Assembly: GCA_963727175.1 (NCBI GenBank)
Contig: CAVSFD010000002.1
Coordinates: forward strand, 4,403,071-4,467,070
Length of the DNA stretch: 64,000 nt
Reading direction: 5' to 3'
DNA from: an uncultured Spirochaetota bacterium
GTDB taxonomy: Bacteria; Spirochaetota; UBA4802; UBA5550
Shown here: positions 38,819 to 57,126 of the stretch, in pieces
How the letters are laid out: the number at the start of each line of letters is the position of its first letter
Numbering within the stretch: the first letter of the stretch is position 1
Made by a program: the position numbers and the translations under genes
Notes under the pieces: generated by a model
What the model was told of the DNA's origin: nothing
Seen by the model: only the letters and a program-made list of their open reading frames with translations
The model's database searches: none

Positions 38819-40177
38819 CTACAGGTGCCTCTCTGCGTATTTACGAATCGCCTCATGGTATGCCCGTGCCACTGTTTTGACCCGTTCAGGCACCTTCCCC
38901 TCGCTTATCACGGCGAGCTCGCGCGCCTCCCGTAAATTATTCTGCTGGAGCGGCTCACCCAGGCAGAGGGTGCCGCGCACCAGCCGGTTCATCCGGAAAT
39001 TACGGGCATAGACTCCTTTCCGGCAGAAGCCCACCCTGCGCCCGCCGGGCAGCTGCATATCCGCCGGCGGCAGGTCCAGCATCCTGGTAAAGTTTTCCAG
39101 CACGTAAAAAGAGTACCGTATGGAGTTCCTGAGGTCAGGTGAAATAATGAGCCGTAGAAACTCGACGCGGGACTCCATGTTGTCAAGCTCGCCGCGGAGA
39201 AAGCATCCCGGCACGAAAACCGTGGAAAAGTCACGATCAGTTTCCGCGGTAGACTTCAACACCTCGCGGTAATCCGTCATCATGGCCTTCCGGGAACCGT
39301 AGTTTTTCGTCATGATCTCCAGGACGCGGCCGTACTTCTCGCGGTACCCCCCGGACTCGCCGCTCGAATCATAATGGACCATCACGGTGATATCGGGATG
39401 GAAGGCGTTGATGAGCTTCGCCCGGTATGGCATTTCGTATTCACTGTTAAAGAATTTGAGACGCCGTTTGTCTCCGGCATGGGCAAGAAGCATGGCAGCT
39501 TCGCTGTCCGTGATGAATTTGTCGCGCTGTTTTTCCATCACGGCGCTGCTGAAATTGCGTTTCATCCAGTAGTCGAAAGGAACCGGGTATACCTGCCTGT
39601 TGGCGTTCCTGGTGAGCATCACCAGGGCGCCGTCCTTTTCAAGGAGTTCCCGTAACATCAGGGCAGTTGCGAGATTGAGCATTGATTCATGGAACTTGAG
39701 ACGCCGGCCGTCCCTGTCGAAGAGCCACATGTACTTGCTTTCCCTGATCGCCTCTTCCATGGAACCGGCGCCGTGGCCCGGGTCAATTGCCACGCGGAGG
39801 CCCGACAGCGGCTGGCGTGATCCCGGCCTGTAACGAAACACCGGCTCCTCCATGGCCCGGACCTTCGCCGAAAATTCATCGCTGAAAGGTGCCCCTCCCT
39901 TGGAACGGTACGCTTCCCGTATCGCGTCATCGTCAAGAACGCGAAACATCTTGATAAAGACATCGTACTCGTTTTTATAGACCCTGCATTCAATCTTACC
40001 GGAACTTTTATCTTCCGGCGTCGCGTACATGGTTACCGAATCAGATTCGATAGAATAATAGCCCCTGAGAGATTCATCGCCGACAAGAAGTTTTGCGCGG
40101 CTCCCCGTCGTATCACATGCGGTCATGATAAGCAGGAGTAATAAGAAAAAATGAATCACACAGAATTTCATATTCAT
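38819..40177 (-). CDS. N-acetylmuramoyl-L-alanine amidase (Amidase_3-like), lipoprotein
   Basis: MTAC lipobox; VAIDPGHG, E..LNL, V.LTR, R..LIN, VHYD, LGE. Confidence 0.8.
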   Translation of the reverse strand: MNMKFCVIHFFLLLLLIMTACDTTGSRAKLLVGDESLRGYYSIESDSVTMYATPEDKSSGKIECRVYKNEYDVFIKMFRVLDDDAIREAYRSKGGAPFSDEFSAKVRAMEEPVFRYRPGSRQPLSGLRVAIDPGHGAGSMEEAIRESKYMWLFDRDGRRLKFHESMLNLATALMLRELLEKDGALVMLTRNANRQVYPVPFDYWMKRNFSSAVMEKQRDKFITDSEAAMLLAHAGDKRRLKFFNSEYEMPYRAKLINAFHPDITVMVHYDSSGESGGYREKYGRVLEIMTKNYGSRKAMMTDYREVLKSTAETDRDFSTVFVPGCFLRGELDNMESRVEFLRLIISPDLRNSIRYSFYVLENFTRMLDLPPADMQLPGGRRVGFCRKGVYARNFRMNRLVRGTLCLGEPLQQNNLREARELAVISEGKVPERVKTVARAYHEAIRKYAERHL

Positions 40178-40358
40178 TATGCCGGCCCGTTGACTTCCAG
40201 ATTATAATACTGATGAGTAATCTATGACGGCTGATGGTTTTTTTAAATCACTTTTTTATTATACCGGTAAAATCTACTTGATTTAATTATTGAGAGAGAT
40301 CATATTTTTTCAGCAGACTGCCCGTGGAGGCAGTAATCAACAATTATTGGAGTATTCT

Positions 40359-40565
40359 ATGCTGGATAAAATCGGTAGCATAATTATTCCCAATTTTATT
40401 GGGATCTGCTTGATGGTCATAGGATGGTACATAAGCATTCTCAACGTGGGATTGACCCGCTTCCAGGCTGATGTACTCTTTACAAAGTGGACACTGATGG
40501 GCCTGATTCTGATCATTATCGGGGCATATATCCCGAGGATATGGAACAAAATTCGCGGTAACTGA
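40359..40565 (+). CDS. Small two-TM hypothetical protein
   Basis: GGAG RBS, two hydrophobic helices, 68 aa. Confidence 0.6.
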   Translation: MLDKIGSIIIPNFIGICLMVIGWYISILNVGLTRFQADVLFTKWTLMGLILIIIGAYIPRIWNKIRGN

Positions 40566-40774
40566 TCATTCCTTTATAATCATATAGCCTGGTTCAAATA
40601 AATCTTATAGAATAGTAATTTCATAGCTCGTGATATTATATCATGAGCTAAAACGTTATTCCATATCAGTTTAAGTATGTCTTTTCAAATGTATTATATG
40701 GAATGATAATTGGTGTTCTGTATACAATCGACCTGTAATACATTTTTTGGCTGTAATATATAAAAGGAAATAAT

Positions 40775-40817
40775 CGTACCGATAACTATCGGTATATCAA
40801 TTTTTTACTCTGACCCC
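40775..40817 (+). repeat. Left copy of inverted repeat bracketing the 41-53 kb cluster
   Basis: CGTACCGATAACTATCGGTATATCAATTTTTTACTCTGACCCC; inverted counterpart at 53464-53504. Confidence 0.75.
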
Positions 40818-40923
40818 GCCACTATTTTTTATAGTGACTATCATATAAATATATACAAATTCATTAATTTCTTCATTTTCATAATAGACAAAAACAGATT
40901 AATCCATTTCTGTCCTGCCCTAA

Positions 40924-40939
40924 AACTGACTGGTCAGTA
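40924..40939. promoter_or_regulatory. Putative TetR-type operator
   Basis: AACTGACTGGTCAGTA palindrome in AT-rich leader. Confidence 0.5.
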
Positions 40940-41122
40940 TCCAATTATTATAGTAAATTTTTTCAATTTGGACAATTTTTGATATATCAGACTATGGCGA
41001 GACATAAAGAAATTAATAGTATATATATTCTATTATAAAAATCAAACCACCTTTTTTAAAGATTATTAAAATTATTAAATGTTTTTCAAAGAATTTATAA
41101 TGCTAATGTGGAAGAATATTAC

Positions 41123-41138
41123 TACCGACCGGACGGTT
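41123..41138. promoter_or_regulatory. Putative TetR-type operator
   Basis: TACCGACCGGACGGTT just upstream of TGTTATAAT (extended -10-like). Confidence 0.5.
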
Positions 41139-41200
41139 TGTTGTTATAATTTTTTAATATTGAAGATTCACAGGAATCTTCATGGCTATGGATACAAAAT

Positions 41201-42520
41201 ATGATCAGATTTTTAATATATCTGGCAATATCTGTAATAAAAGTTCACTGGAACAATCTCCTTTCAGAGAAAAGCCTGAGGAAATTCACTGAGCGGAGAA
41301 TTATTCGAATGATACGGAAAGCGTACAGGGATGTGCCCTACTACAAGCAGTTGTATGATCAATGCGGCGTCAGCATAAACGAGATAAAAACCCTTGAAGA
41401 TTTGAAAAAACTTCCCTGCATAACCAAGGACGAGATACGCGAACAATTTCCCGGCGGCATCGTTTCCTCGAAATTCAAAGTTGAGGATTGCCATTACTCG
41501 GCCACGACCGGATCCACCGGCAGATCCCTACCCTTCGTTTTCAACAATTCAGCGTACGCTTTTTACATCGCAACGGGTCTGCGCATGTACACCATGATAG
41601 GCTACCGGCCATGGCACAAGATGGTCTACATCAAGTACACTGCCATCAACTATCCGCACTTCGGCCCCTTTTTCAGGACCGAGCACATACCATCCACCAT
41701 TACCGTCAATGAACAGATCGCAATGCTGCGGAGAATGAAGCCCGACCTCCTGCTCGGCTACGCGTCCATTATCTTCGAAATCGCCCAGAAAGCGACCCCC
41801 GACGATCTGAAGCATATCAGGCCCAAATTCATCGGCATCAACTCCGAGCTCTCAACAAAGGACCAGCGCGATTTCATATCTTCGGTGTTCGGGTGTGCGG
41901 TATACGACGAATACTCGACCGAAGAGACATGGATGATCGCTTCCCAGTGCGGGCACGGGAATTACCATATTTTTACCGACAACGTGTGGATGGAATTTGT
42001 CGATAAAAACGGGAACAGCGTGAAGCCCGGTGAGGAAGGCGAAATTGTTCTGACCACATCACGGTGCGACGCCATGCCGTTTATCCGTTACCGCATCGGC
42101 GATATCGGGCGATACAGCGGGAACGCGTGCACCTGCGGCCTCGGTTACCCCCTTCTCGAGGCCTTCGACGGAAGGGCCGACGATTCCTTCATACTGCCCA
42201 GCGGCAAATACGTCTCCTCCCTGAAGATACTCAATACCTTTACCAGGTTTATAAAGAAATACCTCCATCTCATGGAGGAATTCAAGATTATTCAAAAGGA
42301 ACGGGGTTATATTGTCATTGAACTCGTCAAAGGCAGAGAATACAGCGACCGTCACTTCAAGGAGCTGACGGACAGCCTGCACGGTTTATTCGGCGAGCCT
42401 GTAACCATAAGCGTGGAGCCGGTGAACCATATTTCAATGAACAACAAGATAAAACGCAAGGCAATTGAATCCCGGGTACCAGCTAAAGACAAGGAGCCGG
42501 CCCTCATGTCAGCCATGTAA
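41201..42520 (+). CDS. Phenylacetate-CoA ligase/CapK-like adenylate-forming enzyme
   Basis: AY..VPYY, LP.ITK, TTGSTG, DEYSTEE, MPFIRYRIGD, GRADD. Confidence 0.87.
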   Translation: MIRFLIYLAISVIKVHWNNLLSEKSLRKFTERRIIRMIRKAYRDVPYYKQLYDQCGVSINEIKTLEDLKKLPCITKDEIREQFPGGIVSSKFKVEDCHYSATTGSTGRSLPFVFNNSAYAFYIATGLRMYTMIGYRPWHKMVYIKYTAINYPHFGPFFRTEHIPSTITVNEQIAMLRRMKPDLLLGYASIIFEIAQKATPDDLKHIRPKFIGINSELSTKDQRDFISSVFGCAVYDEYSTEETWMIASQCGHGNYHIFTDNVWMEFVDKNGNSVKPGEEGEIVLTTSRCDAMPFIRYRIGDIGRYSGNACTCGLGYPLLEAFDGRADDSFILPSGKYVSSLKILNTFTRFIKKYLHLMEEFKIIQKERGYIVIELVKGREYSDRHFKELTDSLHGLFGEPVTISVEPVNHISMNNKIKRKAIESRVPAKDKEPALMSAM

Positions 42521-42556
42521 CGGGCCGATCAGCATAGATGATAGATACAAGATATT

Positions 42557-44110
42557 ATGGAGGAGAGAAGGATAATGCTTAAATCAAGAGTTATTTCAAT
42601 AACACTAGTGGCATTAATGATTGGTCTCATTTACAGCGATGTATTTCCCTGTGACGTGGCAGTTGTCTCAGCCCGCGCATCCTCGACAGGAAGGCCTTTT
42701 ATCTGGAAAAACAGGGACTGCTCCGCCAGCTGGCATCAGGAGATAAAATACTTCAACGCGGTCACCCAGAAAGCAGGGGCCTACATCATGGTCATCGGCT
42801 TCGACGACGTGGCCGAATTGAACAACGGGACCCCGGTCAATCCTTCGGGAGGAGTGAACGCGGCCGGTTTTGCCATATCCTGCACATCGGTCTATGAAGA
42901 GTTGAACCCCATCGATGAACTTTTCAATATCAATACAGACCTGATACGGCACGCCCTTCAGGAGTGCGCCACCGTTGACGATTTTGACTCATTGCTCAAG
43001 ACCTTTAAAAAGAACCATTTCGGTAAAGTCATCAGCGGCAATTTTGTCGCCATTGATGCCAAGGGCGGGGCTGCGCTGTATGAATGTTTTACCGGCCTTC
43101 TCTTTGGCATGTTCCGTCCGGTAATGTACCGGAAATATGACGCCAACAATGGCAGGGTCACGGAGTATAACGGCCTTTACACCTACACCAAGAACCAGGG
43201 ATCAGGAAACAATTTCATCGGTTTTATCAACCGCGCCAACGCGAACACATACATACCCTATAATTACGGCGAAGAGCGACGCTGGCGGGCGAGAGATATT
43301 ATGACCAACCTGGCGTCAGCAGGGCGGCTTAACTACCGGAACTGCATGACCGAGGTGGCCAAGGATATATACGGCAAGCAGGTCGACACCTGGGGCAACG
43401 AGGTAGACCAGGCCAGCCGCCAGACGGATTACAGCTCAACATACTGCATCAGCCGGGCCGCAACACGTCTGGGCATGGTTGTTGACGGAGTCGCGCCCGG
43501 CGGGGACCCGCGCCTGAGCACCTTCTGGTGCGTGCTTGGCGAGCCCTCCACCGGAATTTTCGTCCCCTACTACGTGTATGCGGGAGAAGTTTCATGGCTT
43601 GCATGGGTCGATGATATCGATCTCGACGGCACCCAGTATGACCTGACCGATGCGTCAATGCTCGCCAGGGCGGCCAACCGGCGCGAGATCTATGAGAATC
43701 TCATATACGATTCAAACGACGGCGACGCCCTGTGGGGAATGGAAGATAAGACCATGAACAAGACCGAAAACCTGAAGATACAGAACTGGTCGCAACCGCT
43801 CGAGGAATTCATATTCCTGAAAAACGAGGAAATGCTGGCCGACATGACGATCCATCCCTCGTATATTACAAAACAAAACCTTAGTGAATTTTCCAACTAC
43901 TGCGCCTCATACGTCTACAGCAATTACAACGAGGGAACGGATGCCCAGTATGCCTGGACCTTCAACAAACCGTGGAACGCGACATGGCTCGGCTACACCA
44001 GGGGCGGATTCCAGAATGACGGGCTGACCGCCCTGTCGCCTGAATTATCGGTGAGCGGCTCACAGGACTCCAGTCTGGCAAGCAGCGTATCAAAATTCCT
44101 GGGCCTGTAA
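42557..44110 (+). CDS. Secreted Ntn-hydrolase (C45/AAT-like cysteine nucleophile)
   Basis: Signal peptide followed by Cys32, GRPFIWKNRD, G.N.AGFAI, IDAKGGAALYE, LGEP. Confidence 0.75.
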   Translation: MEERRIMLKSRVISITLVALMIGLIYSDVFPCDVAVVSARASSTGRPFIWKNRDCSASWHQEIKYFNAVTQKAGAYIMVIGFDDVAELNNGTPVNPSGGVNAAGFAISCTSVYEELNPIDELFNINTDLIRHALQECATVDDFDSLLKTFKKNHFGKVISGNFVAIDAKGGAALYECFTGLLFGMFRPVMYRKYDANNGRVTEYNGLYTYTKNQGSGNNFIGFINRANANTYIPYNYGEERRWRARDIMTNLASAGRLNYRNCMTEVAKDIYGKQVDTWGNEVDQASRQTDYSSTYCISRAATRLGMVVDGVAPGGDPRLSTFWCVLGEPSTGIFVPYYVYAGEVSWLAWVDDIDLDGTQYDLTDASMLARAANRREIYENLIYDSNDGDALWGMEDKTMNKTENLKIQNWSQPLEEFIFLKNEEMLADMTIHPSYITKQNLSEFSNYCASYVYSNYNEGTDAQYAWTFNKPWNATWLGYTRGGFQNDGLTALSPELSVSGSQDSSLASSVSKFLGL

Positions 44111-44131
44111 GTTATTTACTGGACAGGGCAG

Positions 44132-45196
44132 ATGATACCGGCATTGAAATTCAACCATGATGACCGGCCGGCCGAAAGACCGGCCGGCACGGGCAATCAG
44201 CGAGCCGCCGGGCCGGGGATCATTCCCGCGGGCGGCTCCGCGAAGCAGTTCGCGAAGAGGATGATCCCATGGCTCGTGGGAATAGCCATCCTGGCCTACC
44301 TGGTATGGCGCATAGAGATCACGCCGCTGCTCAATGCGCTTTCCCATGCCGACGTGATACTGTACATACCGGTCCTGACCGCCTTCATTCTTGTTAATTT
44401 TCTTGCCGACACGCAGAACCTGAATGCCCTCCTGAAATACTCGCGGAGCCCGATCCCTTTCCGCGACAGCATGATCATCCGGGGCGCGTCATACCTGCTG
44501 ATGATCATCGATTACACGCTGGGAATGGGCAGTATCGTGTATTATCTGAAAAAATACAAGAATGTCCCCATAGCCCGGGGGACGGGGTCAATGCTTTTCC
44601 TGAATTACATCACCCATGTGTCTCTGCTGATAATGGCAATCGCCGGATGCCTGATGGCGGCCGCGGCAGGCGCGCTTTCCACGCTGCTTTCAAACATTGC
44701 CCTTACCGCCACCGTGCTGCTGGCATTAGCCATTATCACCATCATACTCATGAAGATGCTTCCCGATAAATCCTTTATGAAAAAAATCAAGCACAGCGAG
44801 ATGATGCTGATCTTCATTGAGAGCCCGGCGAGCACCTACCTCATTAGTACGCTCTACCGGTGCGGATTCTATTCTACCTTCATCCTGTTTTTTTATGTCG
44901 CGGTCAGGACCTTCAACATGGATATGCCATTTTTCGAACTGGTCGCCTATGTCCCGGTAATCCTGCTCGTGATCAGCGTTCCCATATCGGCCTTCGGCCT
45001 GGGTACCGCGCAGGCGGCGATGCTGCTCCTCTTCAAGGACCATGGCTCGCCGGCGCAGATCCTGGCTTTCAGCCTGACGTACTCGGCGTCAATAATCATC
45101 TTCAGGGGAATAATAGGCGCCTGTTATTATGGTATTATCACAAAAAGAGTATCATATCTATACAAAGCAAGTTTGTTGCGAGGAGAAGTTTCATGA
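44132..45196 (+). CDS. Lysylphosphatidylglycerol synthase TM / UPF0104 flippase-like membrane protein
   Basis: About 8 TM helices; PISAFGLGTAQAA motif. Confidence 0.75.
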   Translation: MIPALKFNHDDRPAERPAGTGNQRAAGPGIIPAGGSAKQFAKRMIPWLVGIAILAYLVWRIEITPLLNALSHADVILYIPVLTAFILVNFLADTQNLNALLKYSRSPIPFRDSMIIRGASYLLMIIDYTLGMGSIVYYLKKYKNVPIARGTGSMLFLNYITHVSLLIMAIAGCLMAAAAGALSTLLSNIALTATVLLALAIITIILMKMLPDKSFMKKIKHSEMMLIFIESPASTYLISTLYRCGFYSTFILFFYVAVRTFNMDMPFFELVAYVPVILLVISVPISAFGLGTAQAAMLLLFKDHGSPAQILAFSLTYSASIIIFRGIIGACYYGIITKRVSYLYKASLLRGEVS

Positions 45197-46281
45197 AAAA
45201 ATTCTGGTTAATGTCAATAAGCGTGTGCATCCTTTCCATACTGGCGTTCGGTTGCAGCCAGGCTCAAGAAGATATCGTCGTGTCGATGGCGAGGAAAAAT
45301 TCAAAGCAGACCAATAACGGCGCCAACAATGAGAATTACGGCACCATTATACCCGGCGACGGGAGCGATACAGGGAGCGGGACAGGAACCGGGACAGGAA
45401 CAGAGAATGCCATTCGCCTGGTGTTCGCCGGTGACGTCATGCTGGCAGGAAAAGTAAAAGACGTTGTGGCCAGCAACGGCGGCGGCAGCTATCAGTATCC
45501 GTTTTTATATGTCGCCGACTATCTCCGGAACGCCGACCTGGCCTTTGTAAACCTCGAAAGCATCGTTAGCAGCGATGGAACATCGAGTGGTTCATCCGCC
45601 CTGAGGGCCGATCCGGCTGCGGTCAGCGGATTGACCTACGCGGGGATCGATGTCGTATCGGTCGCCAACGACCACGCCTTTGATTACGGCAGGACCGGAT
45701 TTGACAGCAGCATCCAGAACCTGAAAAACGGAGGGATTACCTGCATTGGCGGCGGGAACTTTGACGAGTCCTATACTGCAAAAATAATCGATGTCAAGGG
45801 GACCAGGGTGGCCTTCCTTGCCTTTACCAACCTGGGCGACGAATACACCGTCCGGGCGCAGAAAAATGATTCATCCCAGGGACTTACAGCGAGAACGGGC
45901 GTTGCGTGGTTCTACAAGAAATATGTCGGTCCCGCTCTCATCAGCGCCAAGAAACAGGCTGATATCGTCATTGTTTCCCTCCACATGGGTAAAGCTGGCA
46001 GCAATCTGCCGAACCTTTACCAGGACAAGTATGCCCATTACTGCGTCGACCAGGGGGCAAGCATCGTAATCGGCCACCATCCCCAGGTCATCCAGCCGGT
46101 GATGGTGTACATCAAAGGAGATATCGCCTATTCGCTGGGGAACCTGGTTTCCGATGCAGGCACGACCGATACGAAAAAAGGGATGATTCTCGAAGTCATC
46201 GTCGACAACAAGCAGATAACGCAGGTCAACAGGAAATACGTGCAGATCAGCAGCACGTATCAGCCGATCATGCTGCAGTAA
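45193..46281 (+). CDS. CapA (PGA_cap) metallophosphoesterase-family lipoprotein
   Basis: AFGC lipobox, GDVML, NLE, ANDH, LHMG, GHHPQ, YSLGN; ATGA overlap with upstream gene. Confidence 0.85.
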   Translation: MKKFWLMSISVCILSILAFGCSQAQEDIVVSMARKNSKQTNNGANNENYGTIIPGDGSDTGSGTGTGTGTENAIRLVFAGDVMLAGKVKDVVASNGGGSYQYPFLYVADYLRNADLAFVNLESIVSSDGTSSGSSALRADPAAVSGLTYAGIDVVSVANDHAFDYGRTGFDSSIQNLKNGGITCIGGGNFDESYTAKIIDVKGTRVAFLAFTNLGDEYTVRAQKNDSSQGLTARTGVAWFYKKYVGPALISAKKQADIVIVSLHMGKAGSNLPNLYQDKYAHYCVDQGASIVIGHHPQVIQPVMVYIKGDIAYSLGNLVSDAGTTDTKKGMILEVIVDNKQITQVNRKYVQISSTYQPIMLQ

Positions 46282-46311
46282 TTTGACCGGATTAAGAGGA
46301 TCAGCACGAGA

Positions 46312-47451
46312 ATGAAAGGAAAAACTGCCGCTGAAAAACTCCAGGAGAAGCTGGCGGAACTTATACCGCTCCGGCACTTTATTGCCACCGGATACACCCG
46401 GAACGGGCTCTTTCTTCTCATAAAGGCCAAGCGCTGGGAAAACACCGCTGAAATCATAATCCCGGCCTTCACCTGCCCGGTCATCAGGCACACTATCGCT
46501 GAAGCCGGTGCCGTCCCGGTCCCGGTTGACGCAGAGGAAGACGGCATAAATATCGATCCCGACAAGATAATCCCTGCAATCACGGGAAGAACAAAGGCCA
46601 TATATGTGGTCCACACCTACGGCATGGCCGCGCAGATTGAAAAGATATGCGCGATAGCGAAAAAGCACGGCCTTATGGTCATCGAGGACCTGGCGCACGC
46701 TCCCTTCTCTCTCTGCGGTGACAGGCAGCTCGGGACCTATGGAGATATCGCGCTGTTAAGCTTTACGAAGAAGCTGGTTAATTTCGAAGGGGGGGCCATC
46801 GGCACCAATGATACGGCCTTGCATGCACGCATGACGATGCTTCAAAGAGAATATGCCTTTCGGCGTTCTTTTTCGCTCCTTTTTTTAATCGATTGTTTCG
46901 TCCGTCTGGTAGGATCCTGGTGGGAGAGCAGTTTTTCCATGCCCGCGCTGCTTCTCATGAAGCTGAATGACGCGATCAATACGATCGTATACAGAGGGTC
47001 TTACGGAATGTCGATAGACGGCGCGGCATTTTCAGCAAGCGAACGGGGGTGCCGCATAACACTGCGCCAGATAGACCGCCTTTTCGATAGATACCGAAGC
47101 AACAGCACTCATTACCGGCGACGGGCCGTCACGGCGCCGGACATACTTATATACAGGCCGCACCAGAAAAACAGTGACACTCCGACCTTCTATATCACGG
47201 GTATTCCCGCCGGCAGGAACCGCCTCTACAGGCTGCTGTCTTTTCGCACATGGCACAACAGCAACAGGCCCGGCTCCTTTCCCAGAGCGGATTACCTGTA
47301 TGAAAATTACAGGATATTTTCAAAAGCGGTACTGATGTTTCTTCCCGGACGGAAGAACAGCTCTATCCGCCTGGTACAGAAAGGGGATGTGAATATACAC
47401 AAAAAGAATATGAAACAGCCAACCTTATCAAACAAAAGGGGGATCATATGA
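46312..47451 (+). CDS. DegT/DnrJ/EryC1/StrS family PLP-dependent protein
   Basis: IIPAFTC, VVHTYG, IEDLAHA, G..GD...SFTKK, EGG. Confidence 0.8.
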   Translation: MKGKTAAEKLQEKLAELIPLRHFIATGYTRNGLFLLIKAKRWENTAEIIIPAFTCPVIRHTIAEAGAVPVPVDAEEDGINIDPDKIIPAITGRTKAIYVVHTYGMAAQIEKICAIAKKHGLMVIEDLAHAPFSLCGDRQLGTYGDIALLSFTKKLVNFEGGAIGTNDTALHARMTMLQREYAFRRSFSLLFLIDCFVRLVGSWWESSFSMPALLLMKLNDAINTIVYRGSYGMSIDGAAFSASERGCRITLRQIDRLFDRYRSNSTHYRRRAVTAPDILIYRPHQKNSDTPTFYITGIPAGRNRLYRLLSFRTWHNSNRPGSFPRADYLYENYRIFSKAVLMFLPGRKNSSIRLVQKGDVNIHKKNMKQPTLSNKRGII

Positions 47452-48482
47452 AACTCGTACAAGAAGCTATTGCCAGAACAGTTGAAAGAGAAGAAAATTT
47501 CCAGGTGGCCATTACCTGCAGGGACAACTTCCTCGTGGATCACAAAGGGTTCAATTACTACGTAATCGACCTCAAGAACACCGATTTCTCGATTCTTGAA
47601 GATATAGTCAGCGGGTGCGAGGCCGTGGAAAGCGACACATGGAAGGCGCAGGAAGATTTTTTTGATTACATCAAGAAAAGCGACATCCTGGTCTATGCCG
47701 AAAAGGACGGCCGAATCGTCGGCTTCAACCTTGTATCCCTGCTGCTCATCAACGAATACTGTTTTTACACGATCGACGAAGCGATGGTGCTCAGGGCATT
47801 CCAGGGCAACAACATCGCGCGGAATATCGTTAGTGCCACCCTCTGGTGGTTTTTGAAAATAATCGATTTGGACGGCGCCGTAAAGAAAGGAGTCCTGGTG
47901 TCGATTTCCAGCAATCCGAAGGTCGTGAATAACTATTTTAAGAATAAATATATCACGCGTCTCATGGACAATTCCTTTTTCCCGTCAGAGGACCTGATCG
48001 CCGTGCACCACGCCTATCTGGCTAAAAACAATTTTGAACTTGTCCACGATGATTATCCATTCTGCGTGAAAAACCTTTTTCCCGGTTCGCAGCAGCTTGA
48101 CTGGAACAATAAAAAATATCAATTCCTTGATGATGTAAAACGAAGAATGCCCGGCGAGTTTGAGCACACCAGGCGCGGCGACGCCTGGGCCTTCATGGTC
48201 GTTGCCAATATGCATCTTGCCTATTTCGTCATACGGGCCATCGTGTTCGCCTTCTTCGGATGGAAATCCCTGCTGCATAAAAAAATCGGCCTTCTCAGAA
48301 ACAAGAAGAAACTGGAAACAAGGCCTGAAATGACAAGGATCAGGCTCATTGACGGCAAGTTCTTTGACGTGCGCGCCCATGAAAGACGGAAGACCGAACG
48401 CAGGGTCCACAATGCCGGGTACGATGCGACAGGGACAGACCGGCGGGTTACCGAAAGAAGAATAACCCTACAGACAATCTAA
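47448..48482 (+). CDS. GNAT-like acyltransferase with Arg-rich tail
   Basis: DGRIVGF, V..AFQGNNIA acyl-CoA motif A; ATGA overlap with DegT gene. Confidence 0.6.
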   Translation: MKLVQEAIARTVEREENFQVAITCRDNFLVDHKGFNYYVIDLKNTDFSILEDIVSGCEAVESDTWKAQEDFFDYIKKSDILVYAEKDGRIVGFNLVSLLLINEYCFYTIDEAMVLRAFQGNNIARNIVSATLWWFLKIIDLDGAVKKGVLVSISSNPKVVNNYFKNKYITRLMDNSFFPSEDLIAVHHAYLAKNNFELVHDDYPFCVKNLFPGSQQLDWNNKKYQFLDDVKRRMPGEFEHTRRGDAWAFMVVANMHLAYFVIRAIVFAFFGWKSLLHKKIGLLRNKKKLETRPEMTRIRLIDGKFFDVRAHERRKTERRVHNAGYDATGTDRRVTERRITLQTI

Positions 48483-48557
48483 CGCGTACATGTGCCGGGG
48501 CGGTTTGCACGGATCAGATAACAGCATTTTTTTGAATAGTGATTCCAGAGGATTACG

Positions 48558-49790
48558 TTGAGCGCCAGATTGCAGAACACGTGGGACAAGCCTTATTCCC
48601 GGATACTTTCAGTCAATGAGCGGCTGTGGCTTGCGGCCGATACGATGAACGCCCCCTTCGCGATACAGATGGTCTGCGAGGGAAGCGGAACCATTGATAT
48701 ACATGAATGGCGGAAAGCCGTTGAACTTGCCAGCGCAGCAAACCCCGGGAGCCGGCTGAAGCTTGTAGGCCGCCTCAATTCCTGCAAATGGGTGGATTCG
48801 GAAACAGCGCCGCCGGTACATGAGGTCGACGGCAGCGCATGGACCGGCTACAGCCCCGATGGAGCACCGTTCCTGGAAAAACCGTTCAATGTCGTCGACG
48901 GTCCCACCTGCGAAGTGCTCATTATCCGCGGCAATCCCACCCGCGTGGCCTTCCGGGCCCATCACGCGGTGATGGACAACCACGGCATTATTTTCTGGGC
49001 CGAAGAAATATTCCGCTCACTCCAGGGCAAGCCGCTGCGGGGCTCCTTTTCACGCGCGACGGACTGGGACGTGGCACGATCATTCCAGAGTGAATACCGC
49101 AAACCGTTCCCGCACGATAACCTTTCAATCACCGGAACGGCGGAAGGCAATGAACAGGGAACTGTCTGGGGCCGCAGGAGCATTCAGGGACATTTCCGGC
49201 AGGTCCTCGCCCAGGTGGCCTACCACGCTGCGCGGGAGGCACGCCGGCACGGGGAGGGAAATGTGCGCTTCGCTGTCCCCATCAACCTGAGATCGCGCAT
49301 CCAGGGTCTCCGGTCAACGGGGAACCTCTCAATCGGCATCTACATTGATGTGAGGCCTGAGACCACCATCGATGAAATCAGCTGGGACATCGCGTGGCAG
49401 CTCAGGGAAAAACGCGACTGCATGATCGACCGGTGGGACTTTATTTACAAATACATCCCCATCAGCATCATCGGGCAGGAAGGCACCAGGCGGACTTTTG
49501 ATTATCACAGCAAGGGCCTGTACAGCCTGTCTGGCATCATAAGCAACGCCGGCAAACTCAACGCAAAGCATTTCTCAGGCGGGGGTTTTGAATGCAAATC
49601 CGTATTCGCGATTCCTCCCTATTTCTCATATCTTCCCCTGCTGCTGTGGCTCTACGGAACCGAGGATTCCGTTGAACTGGTCTATGCAGCGCCGCGGGTC
49701 CTTGCGACGCAGGGCAGGCTGGACGCCGCCATTGACCGAATCGTTTCGTCCCTGTTGCCCGCGAGCTACATGGCAATCTACCAGGTCTGA
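48558..49790 (+). CDS. Stand-alone condensation-domain/CoA-dependent acyltransferase 1
   Basis: FRAHHAVMDN, PINLR, SNAG; paralog of the next two genes. Confidence 0.75.
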   Translation: MSARLQNTWDKPYSRILSVNERLWLAADTMNAPFAIQMVCEGSGTIDIHEWRKAVELASAANPGSRLKLVGRLNSCKWVDSETAPPVHEVDGSAWTGYSPDGAPFLEKPFNVVDGPTCEVLIIRGNPTRVAFRAHHAVMDNHGIIFWAEEIFRSLQGKPLRGSFSRATDWDVARSFQSEYRKPFPHDNLSITGTAEGNEQGTVWGRRSIQGHFRQVLAQVAYHAAREARRHGEGNVRFAVPINLRSRIQGLRSTGNLSIGIYIDVRPETTIDEISWDIAWQLREKRDCMIDRWDFIYKYIPISIIGQEGTRRTFDYHSKGLYSLSGIISNAGKLNAKHFSGGGFECKSVFAIPPYFSYLPLLLWLYGTEDSVELVYAAPRVLATQGRLDAAIDRIVSSLLPASYMAIYQV

Positions 49791-49802
49791 CAGGGAATAA
49801 TC

Positions 49803-51008
49803 TTGCGCAGGCTCCGCCCTCATGATATCTCACCGGTACGGCCGCTATCAATAGCCTCGCGATTATGGGTAGCCGCAGATAGGATCATTTCCCCCTTTGC
49901 AAACCAGGTCATCATAGAAGGCACGGGGCATTTCAATGCCGATGAATTGCGGAGTGCCGTCAGAACCGCATCGGAGGCAAACCGCGGTGCACGCCTTGTT
50001 CTGAAGGGGCACCTCGGGTCCAGCCACTGGATCGATTCGGGGATCGCACCGCCGGTCCGTGAAGTTGACGGCACCTCGTGGGATGGACTGGGATCGGAAG
50101 GAGCGCCCTTCCTCATGAAAGGATTCGATATCCGCACGGGACCCAGCAGCGAGGTCCTGCTGATGCACGGCAACCCTGCCCGGATCTCATTCCGGAGCCA
50201 TCATGCGGTCATGGACGGACGCGGGGCCATGACCTGGACCGAAGACATCTTCCGGGTCCTCCGCGGCGAGAAACCGCTGGGCTCCGAGTATGCCATGATT
50301 GAAAACGACCTCCTGAATCTGGGAAGGGGGAAAAGGGGCAAACCGCTCCCCCACCGCTTTATCGCCCCCACGGGGAAAGCGGAGGGCACCGGCGCAGACC
50401 TTGTCTGGAAGAGGGCGTCCCTCACCGGCAAATATCCAAGGCTCCTTGCCAGGGTGCTCCTCCTCACAGCCCGGGAAGCGTGGCGCCATGGAAACGGGAA
50501 GGTAAGGATCGGCATTCCCGTCGATCTGAGGTCACGCCGTGAAGGCCTCCGTTCCACCAGCAACCTCACCAATGCCATATACATTGACATCGACCGGAAG
50601 GCAACACCGGAAACGATAGCCAACGACATCACGCGGAGGCTTTCAAGCAGGGCCGACGGAGAAATCACCTGGGAGGACCTCATCATCAGGTATGTGCCGG
50701 TGAGTCTCCTCGCCATGGCCATACGGAAGGAAGGGATGCGCAACCAGAGGTCGGGACAATTCCGCTTCTCGGGCTTCGTATCAAACCTGGGCCGCATTGA
50801 CAGCGCCGCTCATTCATGCGGCAGCTTTACCGCAACAGCGTTTTACGGGGTTCCTGTTTGTGTGCCCATCCTTCCCTTCAGCATGACCCTGTCCGGCCTG
50901 GGGGACCGTGTCGAGATGCTCATCATGATGCCCCGCGTCATGGCAGCCGGGGGCAGGCTCGAAGCAGCACTTGAGAGGATAACTGAGGCACTCTCGGAGG
51001 CCGGCTGA
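49803..51008 (+). CDS. Stand-alone condensation-domain/CoA-dependent acyltransferase 2
   Basis: FRSHHAVMDG (HHxxxDG), PVDLR, SNLG. Confidence 0.78.
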   Translation: MRRLRPHDISPVRPLSIASRLWVAADRIISPFANQVIIEGTGHFNADELRSAVRTASEANRGARLVLKGHLGSSHWIDSGIAPPVREVDGTSWDGLGSEGAPFLMKGFDIRTGPSSEVLLMHGNPARISFRSHHAVMDGRGAMTWTEDIFRVLRGEKPLGSEYAMIENDLLNLGRGKRGKPLPHRFIAPTGKAEGTGADLVWKRASLTGKYPRLLARVLLLTAREAWRHGNGKVRIGIPVDLRSRREGLRSTSNLTNAIYIDIDRKATPETIANDITRRLSSRADGEITWEDLIIRYVPVSLLAMAIRKEGMRNQRSGQFRFSGFVSNLGRIDSAAHSCGSFTATAFYGVPVCVPILPFSMTLSGLGDRVEMLIMMPRVMAAGGRLEAALERITEALSEAG

Positions 51009-51135
51009 CGCCAATAAAGGCTTGACATTGAAAATCTTGATCCATTGTATATTAATAGTAACTTGATGCATAACCTGTTATAATTATTCATGCCTGCCCC
51101 CCGCCTTCGGCGGCAGGGACAGGTATTATTCCGCT

Positions 51136-52323
51136 ATGACCAGAGACTATATCCGCAAACTTTCATCCACCGAACGGGCGTATGTGATCCTCGGCGACCT
51201 GTATCCCCCCTTCGCGAACCAGTATTTCTGGGAAGGTACGGGTGTGCTCGACCCGAACCTCTGGCACAGTGCGGTTGAAAAAGCCGCGGAGCGCAACATA
51301 GGGTGCCGCCTGGCGCTGCGGGGTGTCCTCAACCGGGCCCGATGGATCGATTCCGGCAAGCCGCCGATAGTGAGTGAAGTTGACGGCAGCCGCTGGTCCG
51401 GCATGAGCTCGGACGGCGCCGATTTCCTGACAACGGCGCTGTCGCCCTGGAACGGGGAGGGATGCCAGATACTCCTTATCCACGGCAACCCGCAGCGGGT
51501 GGTGTTCCGCACCCATCACGCGGTGATGGACGGCCGCGGGACACAGACCCTCGCCGAGGACGTCTTCAGCGCCCTTCGCGGTGAACCGCTGGCCGGTTCT
51601 GAATGCCGGACCGTCGAGCAGGTTCTGGCCCGCAGCTTTCAGAAAAAAGGGAGGGACGCCTCCCCGCCGGTACACATCGCCCCGACAGGAAGAGCTGACG
51701 GAGCCGGCAGGGAGATATTCTGGCGCAGGTTCCAGGTCAGGGGCGCCTACAAGAAAATCGTTTCCCAGGTTGCCGTTGCCCTGGCGAGGGAGGCCCGCTC
51801 CTATTCACAAGGACCGGTACGCATCGGCATCCCTGTCGACCTCCGGCCCAGGAAAAACGGCCTCCGGTCGACCAGCAACCTGACGAACCTCATTTACGTG
51901 GATGTGAATCCCGAAGACAACTATATCGGTATCGATAATGATATCAAGCAGCAGCTGGCCGAGTGCCGCGACGGGATGCTGTACCGGGGGGACGAACTGA
52001 TACGATTTCTGCCCCTAGGATTCGTCCGAAGACTGGCTGATCGAAGGATCCAAAAAAATCATGCCCGGGGATTATACAACGCAACGGCGCTGATTTCCAA
52101 TCTCGGTAAAAAGGATCTCATGCAATTCTCCGGGGGCGGGTTCCGCGCAACGGCCTTCTGGGCGATTCCACCCGGCTCGGAGCTCTACCCTTACTCCGTG
52201 GTTCTGGCAGGCCATGGTGATATCATCGAGATAATCATCACCATCCCGAAGGTCATGGCGACAGGGGGCCGTTTTGACAGGAGCATCGACGCCCTGGCCC
52301 GTAACCTGGAAATATTTTCCTGA
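51136..52323 (+). CDS. Stand-alone condensation-domain/CoA-dependent acyltransferase 3
   Basis: FRTHHAVMDG, PVDLR, SNLG. Confidence 0.78.
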   Translation: MTRDYIRKLSSTERAYVILGDLYPPFANQYFWEGTGVLDPNLWHSAVEKAAERNIGCRLALRGVLNRARWIDSGKPPIVSEVDGSRWSGMSSDGADFLTTALSPWNGEGCQILLIHGNPQRVVFRTHHAVMDGRGTQTLAEDVFSALRGEPLAGSECRTVEQVLARSFQKKGRDASPPVHIAPTGRADGAGREIFWRRFQVRGAYKKIVSQVAVALAREARSYSQGPVRIGIPVDLRPRKNGLRSTSNLTNLIYVDVNPEDNYIGIDNDIKQQLAECRDGMLYRGDELIRFLPLGFVRRLADRRIQKNHARGLYNATALISNLGKKDLMQFSGGGFRATAFWAIPPGSELYPYSVVLAGHGDIIEIIITIPKVMATGGRFDRSIDALARNLEIFS

Positions 52324-52342: not shown

Positions 52343-53341
52343 CTATTTTTCGAAGAGATTGCTGATCTTCTGCCTTATTGAAAGAATAATCTCCGACCTT
52401 TCCGACGTGCAGAACTCGTAGATGGCGCGGGCCACCTCCGGAGCCCTGAGGTACCCGTACAGCTTGTGAGGGAACCGCTCGCCATTGATCTCATAATTAT
52501 TGTAAATGAGGGTGTCCTTCGGGACGACGCCATGGGAATTAGGCCGGTAATCATCACCAAGGTTGTAGTTAATCGCCACCGGGTCATCAAGGTCGGAATA
52601 ATTATACCATCCTTTCCGGATGTTCTCCGGAGTCACGGGCTTCTGCTCCTTTTTGTAATCCCTGCCCTGCTCAATCAGGACCTTCTTTAAAATCAATGGC
52701 ATCGCCAGGGGTGACCCGATAGTTATCAGCGTATTTATTGAGACATCCGGCGTTGTCTGTGATAGCACATCAAAGGATATAATCGTGCCCATGGAATGGG
52801 CTATGAGCAGGATGTCCCTGTCGCGGTACTTGCGCAGGACTTCCGCAAGTCTCATCCTGATGGCGTCCCGTGCCAGCAGACCCCGGTATCGGGTTACGGG
52901 ACAGTCCTTGTGATAATAGAGGTCGAGGTCCTTGAAGAGATTGCGGATAAGGATATTGGCAATCTTGTCAAAATTAATAAAGCTGTCCTCTTTGAAATAC
53001 ATTTTATCCAGCCGCTTTTCCAATCTGTCCAGGACCTTCTTCTTCATTTTACTCGGTTTGAAATTCATGTAATCATCCGGGTTCCCGGGCAGATACGGGT
53101 CATCAAAATATGTGTCTTTCTTTTTATCTGGTTCCTTGGGATCCTGAGGCAATTCGTGCATCAGGTCAGCCCAATAAACAAGCTTTAACGTGAAAGGAGT
53201 CCCTTTCTTCTGGATTGTTTTAAATCCTTCGCGGATGGAAGCCTTACACCATGTTTCCAGTACTTTTTTTTCCGGCTTGTTGGCCAGTCCGTGGATGCAG
53301 ATAATTATCTTCTTCTTGAACATTTTGTCAAATATGCTCAT
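52343..53341 (-). CDS. Alpha/beta hydrolase (lipase-like)
   Basis: IHGL, AHSMG, TIGSPL, W.N..D.DD.VA, H..YGYL; start ATG 53341 after GGAGG. Confidence 0.8.
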   Translation of the reverse strand: MSIFDKMFKKKIIICIHGLANKPEKKVLETWCKASIREGFKTIQKKGTPFTLKLVYWADLMHELPQDPKEPDKKKDTYFDDPYLPGNPDDYMNFKPSKMKKKVLDRLEKRLDKMYFKEDSFINFDKIANILIRNLFKDLDLYYHKDCPVTRYRGLLARDAIRMRLAEVLRKYRDRDILLIAHSMGTIISFDVLSQTTPDVSINTLITIGSPLAMPLILKKVLIEQGRDYKKEQKPVTPENIRKGWYNYSDLDDPVAINYNLGDDYRPNSHGVVPKDTLIYNNYEINGERFPHKLYGYLRAPEVARAIYEFCTSERSEIILSIRQKISNLFEK

Positions 53342-53463
53342 GAGTAACAGCCTCCAACAAAGTTCTGAAATGATCTGTTCAATTGATACGTATTTATCAC
53401 CCTGACTTACAGCCTGTCCAGACTTTTGTGTTTTTACAGTTTTTTTTTTCATTGGATGTGCAA

Positions 53464-53504
53464 GGGGTCAGAGTAAAATCATTCTACCGATAACTATCGG
53501 TACG
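53464..53504 (-). repeat. Right copy of inverted repeat bracketing the 41-53 kb cluster
   Basis: GGGGTCAGAGTAAAATCATTCTACCGATAACTATCGGTACG. Confidence 0.75.
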
Positions 53505-54971: not shown

Positions 54972-55973
54972 TTACCTCACTATCAATTCAGCATGGAGAG
55001 CGCCGGAAGCCTCGAGCGCTTTCAGTATGGATATGATATCCGCCGTGGTCGCGCCGGTAGCGTTCAGCGAATCGACAAGCTCCTTAACCGACGCGGAATC
55101 CTTCAATTCAGTCGCGGAAACCTTCTTGCCGGTTTCCTTTATTTCCACCGTGAGACCTTCCCTGCTCACCATGGCGGCCGATATCTTCACCTCGCCGCCG
55201 GTGACGATGGTGCCGTCGCGCTCGTTGACCACGACCTTTGCGCGGTACGCCGGAGCGACCTCGATATTTTCAATGTTTGATATGAATTCCGGTATGCTGA
55301 TGTTTTTCAGCAGGGTGACCTGGATCCTTCCTCCCGGGGCCAACACCGGCTTCGATTCCGGGTACTTGTTCGCCACCGCCTTGATGATGCTGTTCCCCAC
55401 GGTATAGTCCCATTCCCTGAGGACGATAAAGATCTTGTTGTCATCCTCCCTGTCATTCTTGTCGCGGAACACTATTTCCGGATATATTTCCCGTTCCACC
55501 ACGGCGCCGCCGTCGATCTGGGCTACGGTGCGGACGCTCCTCCGCTCGTTTTTTATCCTCGGCACCGCGAGCGTCCCCTGGGCCACCGCGTAGATGGCGC
55601 CGTCGCCGCCCCGCAGGGGCGACTGTACCAGTATGCCGCCTTCGAGTGACTTGGCGTCGCCGATGGAGGACACCGTCACGTCGATCCGGTCACCGACGCG
55701 CACGAAGGCCGGGAGTCTTCCCGTGACGAGGACCGCCGCCGTGTTGGCCGACGTGATATCATCCCCCTCCATGCCGAGGTTTTTCAGGAGATTCTTCAGG
55801 GACGACCTGGTCAGGGGCGATTTCCTCGTATCACCGGTGCCCGGAAGCCCGACGACAAGACCGTAGCCGAAGACCTGGTTCTCCTTGAGCCCGTCTATGT
55901 AGGATATGTCCTTGATCTTGACCGACACCTCGGTATGTCCGGATACGGCGGTCAGCAACAACAGTGCGATCAT
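54972..55973 (-). CDS. flgI: Flagellar P-ring protein
   Basis: IKDI..I.G..ENQ..GYGLVVGL.GTGD, SSIGDAKSLEGG, VVVNERDGTIV, GALHAEL; true start may be ~55995 with a homopolymer slip. Confidence 0.93.
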   Translation of the reverse strand: MIALLLLTAVSGHTEVSVKIKDISYIDGLKENQVFGYGLVVGLPGTGDTRKSPLTRSSLKNLLKNLGMEGDDITSANTAAVLVTGRLPAFVRVGDRIDVTVSSIGDAKSLEGGILVQSPLRGGDGAIYAVAQGTLAVPRIKNERRSVRTVAQIDGGAVVEREIYPEIVFRDKNDREDDNKIFIVLREWDYTVGNSIIKAVANKYPESKPVLAPGGRIQVTLLKNISIPEFISNIENIEVAPAYRAKVVVNERDGTIVTGGEVKISAAMVSREGLTVEIKETGKKVSATELKDSASVKELVDSLNATGATTADIISILKALEASGALHAELIVR

Positions 55974-55999
55974 GAACAGTGACCTTTTTCATCATGGCA

Positions 56000-56626: not shown

Positions 56627-57126
56627 AAGGCCAGCTCGACCACCCGTTCATTCAATATCCTGCCGCGCGACACGGTTGTGCCCTTGAGTTTTACCGGAAT
56701 CTCCTCACCGACAGCGCCATCCTGAAGGGCCGTGCCGGTCTGTTCAACGCGGACCCGGGAACTGACGACCTGGAACCGCACCAGGCATCCCTTGCGGACC
56801 ACGACCCGGGGCTCTTCCTGGACCGCCCCGGTCACGGCGTCGCTTACCCTGACGCCGCTTCCGTAAATGTTGACACGCCCCGCCACATGGGCCCTCACCA
56901 GGTCGATCAGCTCTTTACGGTCGATATATCCGTCCGCGAAAAGGGTGTCCTCGATGCCTATTGAGCCGACCTTCGCCGCCTCATCGTCGCCGTCAATTGT
57001 TCCCAGGTCGTTCAAGACCAGGGCATTTTTTCCGCGGTCAACCCGGGGGTACAGGTATATGGTAACCTCCGCGTATACAGCCGCGGTGGTCAGGAGCAGA
57101 AACATGATGAAGCAGAGGATCTTCAT
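56623..57126 (-). CDS. flgA: FlgA-like P-ring assembly chaperone (short)
   Basis: VVRKG..V, GTALQDGAVGEEIPV SAF-like C-terminus. Confidence 0.75.
   Translation of the reverse strand: MKILCFIMFLLLTTAAVYAEVTIYLYPRVDRGKNALVLNDLGTIDGDDEAAKVGSIGIEDTLFADGYIDRKELIDLVRAHVAGRVNIYGSGVRVSDAVTGAVQEEPRVVVRKGCLVRFQVVSSRVRVEQTGTALQDGAVGEEIPVKLKGTTVSRGRILNERVVELAL

Follow-up and report, generated by a model that had tools for sequence, protein, structure and literature searches.

We analysed a 64,000-nt stretch of DNA (hereafter, the window) from contig CAVSFD010000002.1 of an uncultured Spirochaetota bacterium, in which nine genes at positions 41201-52323, here called g1 to g9, end in three tandem paralogs predicted to have the fold of the condensation (C) domains of nonribosomal peptide synthetases (NRPSs). 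Our tentative interpretation, to which we assign a probability of roughly 45%, is that the nine genes form one biosynthesis and export module for an acylated, membrane-active small molecule, such as a lipoamino acid, a lipopeptide-like compound or a poly-acylated amine.

The nine open reading frames (ORFs) were all located on the + strand, with intergenic gaps of at most 127 nt, and ATGA start/stop overlaps were read in the sequence at 45193 (g3/g4) and 47448 (g5/g6). The layout of nine co-oriented genes with two overlaps, as described in the original prediction made from the sequence alone, was thus confirmed, and all nine gene identities proposed there were supported by domain, motif or fold evidence. 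The GC content was 0.39 at 40001-42000 versus 0.50-0.60 over 42001-52000. The genes and the evidence for each assignment are as follows.

g1, 41201..42520, + strand: PaaK/F390-synthetase-like adenylate-forming ligase (PDB and NCBIfam matches, motifs)
g2, 42557..44110, + strand: secreted, putative N-terminal nucleophile (Ntn) hydrolase or acyltransferase of the Cys type, C45/AAT-like (signal segment, Cys motif, sub-threshold profiles)
g3, 44132..45196, + strand: stand-alone LPG_synthase_TM (UPF0104/PplT) membrane protein, putative lipid translocator (PF03706)
g4, 45193..46281, + strand: CapA/PGA_cap-family lipoprotein of a family with a metallophosphatase-type fold (PF09587, lipobox)
g5, 46312..47451, + strand: DegT/DnrJ/EryC1-type pyridoxal phosphate (PLP) enzyme with a divergent C-terminal half (PF01041, Lys motif)
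g6, 47448..48482, + strand: predicted GNAT-fold acyltransferase whose C terminus has a hydrophobic helix and then a basic tail of (D/E)RR repeats (AlphaFold [AF2] model)
g7, 48558..49790, + strand: stand-alone paralog with a predicted condensation fold, HHAVMDN (paralogy to g8)
g8, 49803..51008, + strand: stand-alone paralog with a predicted condensation fold, HHAVMDG, from an old orthogroup represented once per locus (AF2 model)
g9, 51136..52323, + strand: stand-alone paralog with a predicted condensation fold, HHAVMDG (paralogy to g8)

Stand-alone paralogs with a predicted condensation fold

The products of g7-g9 are each about 400 amino acids long and share 41-42% identity (42% between g7 and g8, 41% between g9 and g8). 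No Pfam or NCBIfam model matched any of the three above threshold. The best score against the Pfam Condensation model (PF00668) was 10.4 bits (E 0.26) for g9, with a cut-off of 30.6, and g7 and g8 gave no match. PapA_C reached 13.2 bits (E 0.06, cut-off 30) and WS_DGAT_cat 12.6 bits (cut-off 23.6), placing the paralogs outside the PapA5/WS-DGAT models as well; the sub-threshold WS_DGAT_cat and Condensation matches of g9 fell at its HHAVMDG motif. Searching the PDB with g8 using phmmer returned chance matches only (LolA, E 0.007, and one hypothetical protein), and a profile of the family found no related chain at E<=1, the only match being a polyamine oxidase at E 0.67.

The fold was recognized from structure. 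An AF2 model of g8 built from 40 homologs had a mean predicted local distance difference test score (pLDDT) of 92.6 and a predicted template modelling score (pTM) of 0.91. Foldseek returned 264 matches for this model at E<=0.001, headed by AzeD (8s6l, E 1.4e-20) and followed by the C, epimerization (E) and X domains of NRPSs. In an independent all-against-representatives alignment (VIA), AzeD again ranked first, with Z 35.1 and a root mean square deviation of 3.1 over 380 residues at 14% identity. The next scores were 27.6 for CDA C1, 25.2 for PapA5 (1q9j), 23.4 for RzmA, 22.1 for WS/DGAT and 19.2 for VibH. Across C, E, heterocyclization (Cy), PapA5, WS/DGAT and BAHD structures, Z ranged from 35.1 to 17.6, as fits the two-lobed, V-shaped fold related to chloramphenicol acetyltransferase (CAT). 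The structural matches included the starter C (Cs) domain RzmA with C8-CoA (7c1l); acyl-coenzyme A (acyl-CoA) is a known donor of NRPS Cs domains.

The second His and the Asp of the HHxxxDG-type motif were invariant in all 79 family members taken from the loci (79/79). With Foldseek and VIA agreeing on the g8 model and the His-Asp pair intact, the prediction that the paralogs are of the condensation type was supported at the level of the fold: on the modelled structure, they have a condensation/CAT fold, and the nearest solved relative of g8, AzeD, is a stand-alone protein of the C family.

Partner genes encoded alongside the paralogs

The ligase g1 was the best-conserved partner, with a median identity of 63% in 14 distant loci versus 40-51% for the other genes. 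It matched phenylacetate-CoA ligase 4r1l in the PDB at E 2.6e-28, and its PDB relatives are CoA ligases or enzymes that form esters or amides directly. Every NCBIfam match (DVU_1553, PaaK and FlxY-type) lay under its equivalog cut-off; with 91.6 bits against the PaaK equivalog TIGR02155 (cut-off 646), g1 can be called PaaK-like only. Its P-loop, SATTGSTG, was conserved in 19 of the 20 homologs covering that region, and its C-terminal Lys motif, (I/V)KRK, in 21 of 21.

Two partners carry extracytoplasmic signals. In g2, a hydrophobic signal segment precedes the Cys of CDVAVVS...GRPxIWKNRD, which was invariant in 17 of 17 homologs. Pfam AAT (PF03417) scored 19.6 bits (cut-off 23.2) and NCBIfam C45_proenzyme 33.7 bits (E 2.4e-8, cut-off 85); no match to g2 was found among PDB sequences. 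Among the Atlas neighbours listed for g2, all 30 (30/30) fell in one set of clusters, and in the clusters listed PF03417 AAT was present on 18-38% of members. The signal peptide of g4 has a lipobox, AFGC, and g4 scored 219.6 bits against PF09587 PGA_cap. Its nearest solved sequences were 8ith and 8gq9 (E 4.4e-18); its solved CapA-family matches comprised only 8ith, 8gq9 and 8gqb, which are labelled as poly-gamma-glutamate/capsule synthesis. The nearest NCBIfam model was that of the lasso-peptide epimerase MslH, below its cut-off. A reading of the cluster as one for a ribosomally synthesized and post-translationally modified peptide, taken from this MslH-like match, was set aside: no conserved, precursor-like small ORF accompanied the set, and g4 was found in 10/33 loci.

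The membrane protein g3 matched PF03706 with 60.5 bits (cut-off 33.4) over profile positions 1-302 of 302. At 354 amino acids, it consists of the transmembrane domain alone and has no synthase domain, which sets it apart from MprF. The PplT domain has been proposed as a general lipid translocator, according to a preprint (10.1101/2022.03.11.483950).

The PLP enzyme g5 belongs to PF01041 (145.2 bits, cut-off 19.8), the match covering only profile positions 26-200 of 360, and it matched sugar aminotransferases and dehydrases in the PDB over residues 7-180 with E down to 3e-25. Its PLP lysine motif, SFTK, was found in 12 of 13 homologs, the remaining one having SFIKK.

For g6, Pfam Acetyltransf_1 gave 16.4 bits (E 0.011), under the cut-off of 20.7. 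Its AF2 model (pLDDT 75.3, core 80-94) had GNATs as its top structural matches throughout (Foldseek E ~1e-5), and the top 50 rows of VIA were all GNAT-type (Z 11.1-9.1); the model thus supports a GNAT fold. No GNAT subfamily stood out in VIA, where Z values were tied at 9-11. A helix at 255-274 is followed by a disordered tail. Complex prediction for g3 and g6 as a split MprF-like pair gave a score of 0.00 and no verdict, which is evidence neither way.

Conservation of the gene set across loci

With the paralog as bait, we fetched 7 genome loci, all from Spirochaetota, and 69 metagenome loci. Loci shorter than 9 kb were left out, as were 16 near-duplicates recognised by eye from their identical layouts (L008, L009, L011, L013, L015, L018, L023, L027, L033, L035, L043, L046, L059 and L069-L071), leaving 33 foreign loci. 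Gene presence was counted by tblastn, as calling the longest ORF had missed g3 in the window and g4 in two loci (L003 and L004).

In close relatives, the nine genes occurred in the same order with a fourth paralog between g8 and g9, and identities were 82-86% for g7 and 78-80% for g9. Across the 33 loci, g1 and g6 were each present in 20 and g3 in 19, and g1, g3 and g6 occurred jointly with two to four paralogs in 17. In distant loci, the order and orientation of the genes were reshuffled, for example into divergent operons, an argument that the genes are linked by function and not simply by inherited synteny. Recurrence in many loci despite this shuffling puts the co-occurrence of the set far beyond chance. 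The set is a conserved functional module, complete in close relatives and represented by g1, g3 and g6 in 17 of the 33 loci, as the original prediction had required of it.

A Pfam scan of 94 ORFs in seven diverse related loci revealed embedded exporters of the kinds that handle hydrophobic cargo: RND, MFP and OMF genes in three loci (L014, L042 and L051), a MacB-type ABC transporter with an MFP in L026, and a LolA_like protein with DUF1302 in L053. Given these exporters and the signal or lipoprotein signals of g2 and g4, export and periplasmic maturation are plausible; to that extent, the earlier proposal that the product is exported and matured outside the cell is supported.

Loci lacking g1-g6 had other companions related to acyl chemistry. 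One (L063) contained three paralogs, two ketoacyl synthase III (KAS III) genes, an acyl carrier protein (ACP) gene and an MMPL protein gene; in another (L074), a GH3 amido synthetase and a radical SAM enzyme accompanied two paralogs; and a third (L034) had a GDSL lipase adjacent. In L017, genes resembling carboxynorspermidine dehydrogenase and decarboxylase (L017:15821-18192) lie 2-4 kb from that locus's version of the cluster, which gives a weak hint of a polyamine as acceptor.

The wider family and its fused relatives

A word-indexed search found 178 homologs of the paralogs among the candidates scored. Among the 120 listed, none carried a precomputed Pfam domain, and all those with names were 'hypothetical'. 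Their labels included Spirochaetota, Smithella, Deltaproteobacteria, Hydrogenedentes, Ignavibacteriales, Syntrophomonadaceae and one Methanolinea bin. An exhaustive profile search returned 968 representatives (50% clustering) at E<=1e-3, of which 563 reached E<=1e-30. Of 301 genomes sampled within the phylum, 8 contained the family; these 8 all belong to the family-level group of the window and include 6 of the 10 genomes of its genus. Being rare in the phylum yet found in bins labelled as other phyla, the family has a patchy distribution that fits an accessory, transferable module.

To characterize longer relatives, we took the 22 proteins exceeding single-domain length among the best 150 representatives and scanned all 22 for domains. 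An AMP-binding domain lay downstream of the family domain (C*) in 21, and a PP-binding domain was present in 20, giving 19 modules of C*, adenylation (A) and thiolation (T) domains (C*-A-T) and one C*-T didomain. In three of the 22, an extra canonical Condensation match lay in between, and some long relatives are named NRPS by their source records. In a tree, fused forms grouped in a few clades (6 changes versus 20.6 when shuffled), and the window paralogs fell among the stand-alone forms.

On annotated plasmids, the domain formed the N terminus of NRPS proteins of about 1000 amino acids (22 Streptomyces and 2 Rhodococcus records, 31-33% identity). Both Rhodococcus plasmids (L086, NZ_CP023721, and L088, NZ_CP077418) carried the C*-A-T NRPS in a conserved cassette with KAS III, a hypothetical protein, a fatty-acid CoA ligase, a small ORF, an epimerase/dehydratase-family protein, a formyltransferase and an MMPL exporter; this looks like an uncharacterised cluster for a lipoamino-acid or lipopeptide lipid using the same C-domain clade. 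On one Streptomyces plasmid, the C*-A-T module directly followed type I polyketide synthase (PKS) genes. Judged from these sequence contexts (KAS III, CoA ligase and PKS neighbours), the domain in fused relatives holds the place of an acyl-accepting or lipoinitiation C domain.

The paralogs themselves are anciently separated. A tree of 83 paralogs, built by a quick search that left some forks unresolved, contained a g8-type clade to which 21 loci contributed exactly one member each, and placed g7 and g9 in separate deep groups. This pattern implies that the paralogs multiplied before the cluster spread and hence that they have distinct roles. The genome of the window also holds a solo fourth paralog (G000:C2:3684271-3685461; L085:9257-10462, - strand), 0.77 Mb from the window, with the motif LHAVMDG, in which Leu takes the place of the first His. 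We rejected the idea that it is a relocated copy of the in-cluster fourth paralog of relatives, to which it is only 54% identical. It adjoins two group-1 glycosyltransferase genes.

Carrier proteins

A six-frame search for PP-binding (PF00550) gave no match in the window, and no PP-binding domain was found among the 94 ORFs of the seven related loci. An AMP-binding/PP-binding module, with which the paralogs could partner as in an NRPS, was absent from the window too. A domain scan of the nine genes and 13 neighbouring ORFs gave no NRPS/PKS or glycosyltransferase domains, so the original statement that none is visible stands. Its description of the cluster as free of carrier proteins applies to the locus but not to the family, as 20 of the 22 long relatives have PP-binding domains and L063 encodes an ACP. 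Since the fused relatives and L063 show the family to be compatible with carriers, we advance carrier independence only as a hypothesis; the window enzymes may depend on an ACP encoded elsewhere, for example that of fatty-acid synthesis. Three of the eight ACP-like ORFs of the genome lie within 27 kb of one another (G000:C2:1011950-1038273), pointing to a separate locus for a lipid or polyketide-like product that depends on carriers.

A proposed pathway and its alternatives

From the gene content, folds, catalytic motifs, extracytoplasmic signals, co-occurrence and exporter association that we observed, we infer the use of CoA, the substrates, the order of steps and the product as follows. In the cytoplasm, g1 would adenylate a carboxylic acid and probably pass the acyl group to CoA as a thioester; the PDB relatives of g1 form CoA thioesters, esters or amides, and starter C domains set a precedent for binding acyl-CoA. 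The phosphopantetheine arm of CoA would then replace the carrier domain that the fused relatives have. The three paralogs g7-g9 and the membrane-anchored GNAT g6 would form multiple amide or ester linkages to a scaffold that bears amines or hydroxyls, for which the DegT-like g5 may install one amine. At the membrane, the PplT/UPF0104 protein g3 would carry the amphiphile over the inner membrane, and in the periplasm, the product would be trimmed or remodelled by g2, the Cys-Ntn hydrolase, and g4, the lipoprotein of the CapA family.

Several observations weigh against this pathway. The co-occurrence counts rest on paralog-baited loci only, and in 9 of the 33 loci none of g1-g6 stood beside the paralogs. 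By tblastn, g2 was present in 16/33 loci, g5 in 12/33 and g4 in 10/33. No exporter gene was found among the 22 window ORFs scanned. The first His of the motif is replaced in 11 of the 79 family members. Nor does the fold guarantee condensation chemistry, since AzeD, the closest protein of solved structure, is a dehydratase whose substrate is a free intermediate. Finally, the genome holds eight small ACP-like ORFs, all more than 500 kb from the window, and carrier domains occur in the fused relatives (20/22) as does an ACP in L063.

The last of these points bear on an ordinary NRPS- or fatty acid synthase-linked acylation, in which the stand-alone C enzymes use substrates tethered to an ACP or peptidyl carrier protein supplied in trans and g1 loads that carrier rather than CoA. 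The PP-binding domains of the long relatives, among them one C*-T didomain, the ACP gene and the pair of KAS III genes that intervene between the L063 paralogs, and the ACP-like ORFs of the genome all favour it. We nonetheless regard this reading as unlikely, with no carrier encoded in the window or among the 94 ORFs of the seven related loci and with the PDB matches of the PaaK-type ligase being CoA ligases or direct ester and amide formers. The dehydratase activity of AzeD raises a different possibility, namely that the paralogs carry out tailoring chemistry on a free metabolite made by the other genes, as a dehydratase, epimerase or isomerase would. AzeD was the closest structure by far (Z 35.1 versus 27.6 for the next), is carrier independent, and the first His is variable in 11/79 members of our family. 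But AzeD has PHxxxDG where the three window paralogs have HHxxxD(G/N), relatives fill the C position of C-A-T modules, and three or four tailoring paralogs per locus would be unusual; we consider non-condensation chemistry very unlikely.

Other readings differ over the fate of the product. The acyl group could be a temporary membrane tether, with a soluble siderophore, signal or antibiotic exported and then deacylated by g2. The secreted, Ntn-type g2 has an invariant N-terminal Cys, pumps that expel small molecules (RND and MacB) are embedded in related loci, and in pyoverdine synthesis it is established that an Ntn enzyme of the periplasm deacylates the exported precursor (PMC6206403). However, g2 is missing from 17 of the 33 loci and has no PDB sequence match, the pyoverdine enzyme PvdQ comes from another Ntn family (an autoproteolytic proenzyme), and neither chelating-group nor receptor genes were found in the 22 window ORFs or the 94 ORFs of related loci. 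We consider a deacylated, soluble product unlikely. We give still less credence to a surface polyamide or capsule-like polymer, for which the ligase and C enzymes would polymerise an amino-acid-like monomer and CapA and the Ntn hydrolase would export and anchor it, as CapA/CapD do for poly-gamma-glutamate. The strong PGA_cap membership of g4 (219.6 bits) and the secreted Ntn-type g2 agree with a polymer, and tandem C-like units are reminiscent of epsilon-poly-lysine synthetase. Yet the 22 window ORFs scanned include no CapB- or CapC-type genes, g4 occurs in 10/33 loci only, its nearest NCBIfam model is the MslH epimerase (below cut-off), and the exporters in related loci are of small-molecule or lipid type; the only solved CapA-family matches of g4 (8ith, 8gq9 and 8gqb) carry a poly-gamma-glutamate/capsule synthesis label.

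The module for an acylated, membrane-active molecule remains our preferred reading, and it can be extended to a bolder form that we think improbable. The cluster might be a carrier-less 'NRPS in pieces', in which CoA thioesters from the PaaK-type ligase, imitating phosphopantetheine-bound substrates, would feed three or four anciently diverged C enzymes that build an oligo-amide/ester or a poly-N-acylated amine in successive steps, followed by a PplT flip and periplasmic editing by the Cys-Ntn hydrolase and CapA, the whole having passed by gene transfer between uncultured anaerobes that belong to several phyla. If true, this would be a new biosynthetic logic.

Flanking DNA and neighbouring genes

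Two features adjoin the operon.

40566..41200, + strand: AT-rich non-coding gap of 635 nt upstream of g1 (GC content, conserved blocks)
52343-53452, - strand: PGAP1-like alpha/beta hydrolase, convergent with the operon end (position kept in 10 related spirochaete loci)

Non-coding blocks at 40965-41200, such as TTGGACAATTTTTGATATATCAGACTATGGCGAGACA and ACTACCGACCGGACGGTTT, were conserved in five related loci. A riboswitch or leader RNA upstream of g1 was rejected: Rfam gave only a chance-level match (PYLIS_6, E 0.51), and RNAalifold returned a covariation term of +0.4 with one compensatory pair among 34. With neither an Rfam family nor covariation support, the blocks are probably promoter/operator DNA, and from its sequence features the gap at 40566-41200 is likely the promoter/operator region of the operon.

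Two identical copies of an 18-nt near-palindrome, TACCGATAACTATCGGTA, flank the operon at 40777-40794, about 400 nt upstream of g1, and at 53485-53502, the second copy lying in the divergent promoter gap beyond the downstream gene. Genome-wide, with up to two mismatches, we counted 46 forward and 44 reverse occurrences versus 0 and 1 for a reversed control, and in L003 and L004, too, the core of the element was found next to the cluster. The near-palindrome may serve a global regulator as its operator, or it may be a repeat like the repetitive extragenic palindromic elements. The PGAP1-like hydrolase, for its part, may be an accessory deacylase or reflect mere synteny.

Farther out, genes for FlgI (P-ring), an FlgH-like protein (L-ring, E 3e-11), FlgA and a rod protein lie at 54972-57920 (- strand), in a genome labelled as that of a spirochaete. 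An ORF at 37359-38033 (+ strand) fuses a DUF1508 domain to ankyrin repeats.

Implications

Condensation-fold enzymes are the bond-forming core of nonribosomal peptide pathways and of several lipid pathways. The clade of 968 representatives described here is unrecognised by Pfam and NCBIfam and is therefore likely to have been overlooked by mining rules that use those models. In the stand-alone form of this clade, two to four old paralogs are accompanied by a ligase of the PaaK type, a GNAT and a homolog of lipid translocators, with no carrier gene nearby; if CoA-bound or free substrates do serve these enzymes, the known routes to amide and ester amphiphiles would be wider than thought. The cluster also offers a way into the envelope or secreted molecules that uncultured bacteria of wetlands and digesters make, and its size of about 11 kb makes expression tests practical. 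The original prediction had not recognised the set as a described pathway; consistent with this, we found no published description of the gene set or the paralog family in a literature search whose coverage excluded subscription journals and bioRxiv supplements.

Comparison with known systems

The closest structural counterpart is AzeD of the azetidomonamide pathway of Pseudomonas aeruginosa. As described in a preprint, AzeD is a dehydratase with a PHxxxDG motif that acts off-line without a carrier protein, and it founds a 'C_standalone' clade, one third of whose members vary the first His. Like the window paralogs, AzeD is a stand-alone condensation-fold protein (about 430 amino acids), and the first His is missing in part of both groups (11/79 here). 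However, the identity between AzeD and g8 is only 14%, a search of the PDB with our family profile retrieves no related sequence at E<=1, and AzeD is encoded in an NRPS cluster, whereas here three or four tandem paralogs occur with no NRPS.

Starter and lipoinitiation C domains of NRPSs share the fold (Z 23.4 for the RzmA Cs domain and 27.6 for CDA C1), and in single C-A-T modules the same family occupies the N-terminal C position, near fatty-acyl activation or PKS genes. The window paralogs differ in being free-standing and multiplied, in being partnered by a PaaK-type ligase where a module has its A-T pair, and in leaving Pfam Condensation unmatched.

In mycobacteria, PapA acyltransferases, FadD ligases and MmpL exporters together form the layout of the phthiocerol dimycocerosate (PDIM), sulfolipid and acyltrehalose loci. 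The likeness lies in stand-alone HHxxxD acyltransferases of the same fold, often as several paralogs, combined with an adenylating ligase and with RND/MMPL-type export of an envelope lipid acylated several times; here, exporters of this type are found in related loci rather than in the window. By contrast, our set has no PKS, its ligase is PaaK-like rather than FadD-like, and its GNAT, PplT, Ntn hydrolase and CapA proteins have no counterpart there.

The envelope-related genes recall three further systems. CapBCA/PgsBCA shares the CapA family (g4), but CapB and CapC were not found in the nine genes and 13 neighbouring ORFs. In pyoverdine synthesis (PMC6206403), acylated ferribactin is made in the cytoplasm, exported by PvdE and processed by the periplasmic Ntn hydrolase PvdQ; PvdQ belongs to another Ntn family, and our set has no multimodular NRPS and only an optional g2 (16/33 loci). 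With its full LPG_synthase_TM domain beside the GNAT g6, g3 echoes the flippase and synthase of MprF and the stand-alone PplT proteins (preprint 10.1101/2022.03.11.483950), although g3 has no fused synthase and g6 no specific likeness to a GNAT subfamily (all near Z 11). Taken as a whole, and although its proteins fall below the cut-offs of the Condensation, PapA_C, WS_DGAT and PaaK sequence models, the gene set is, as judged from sequence, akin to the known pathways that use C-fold acyltransferases.

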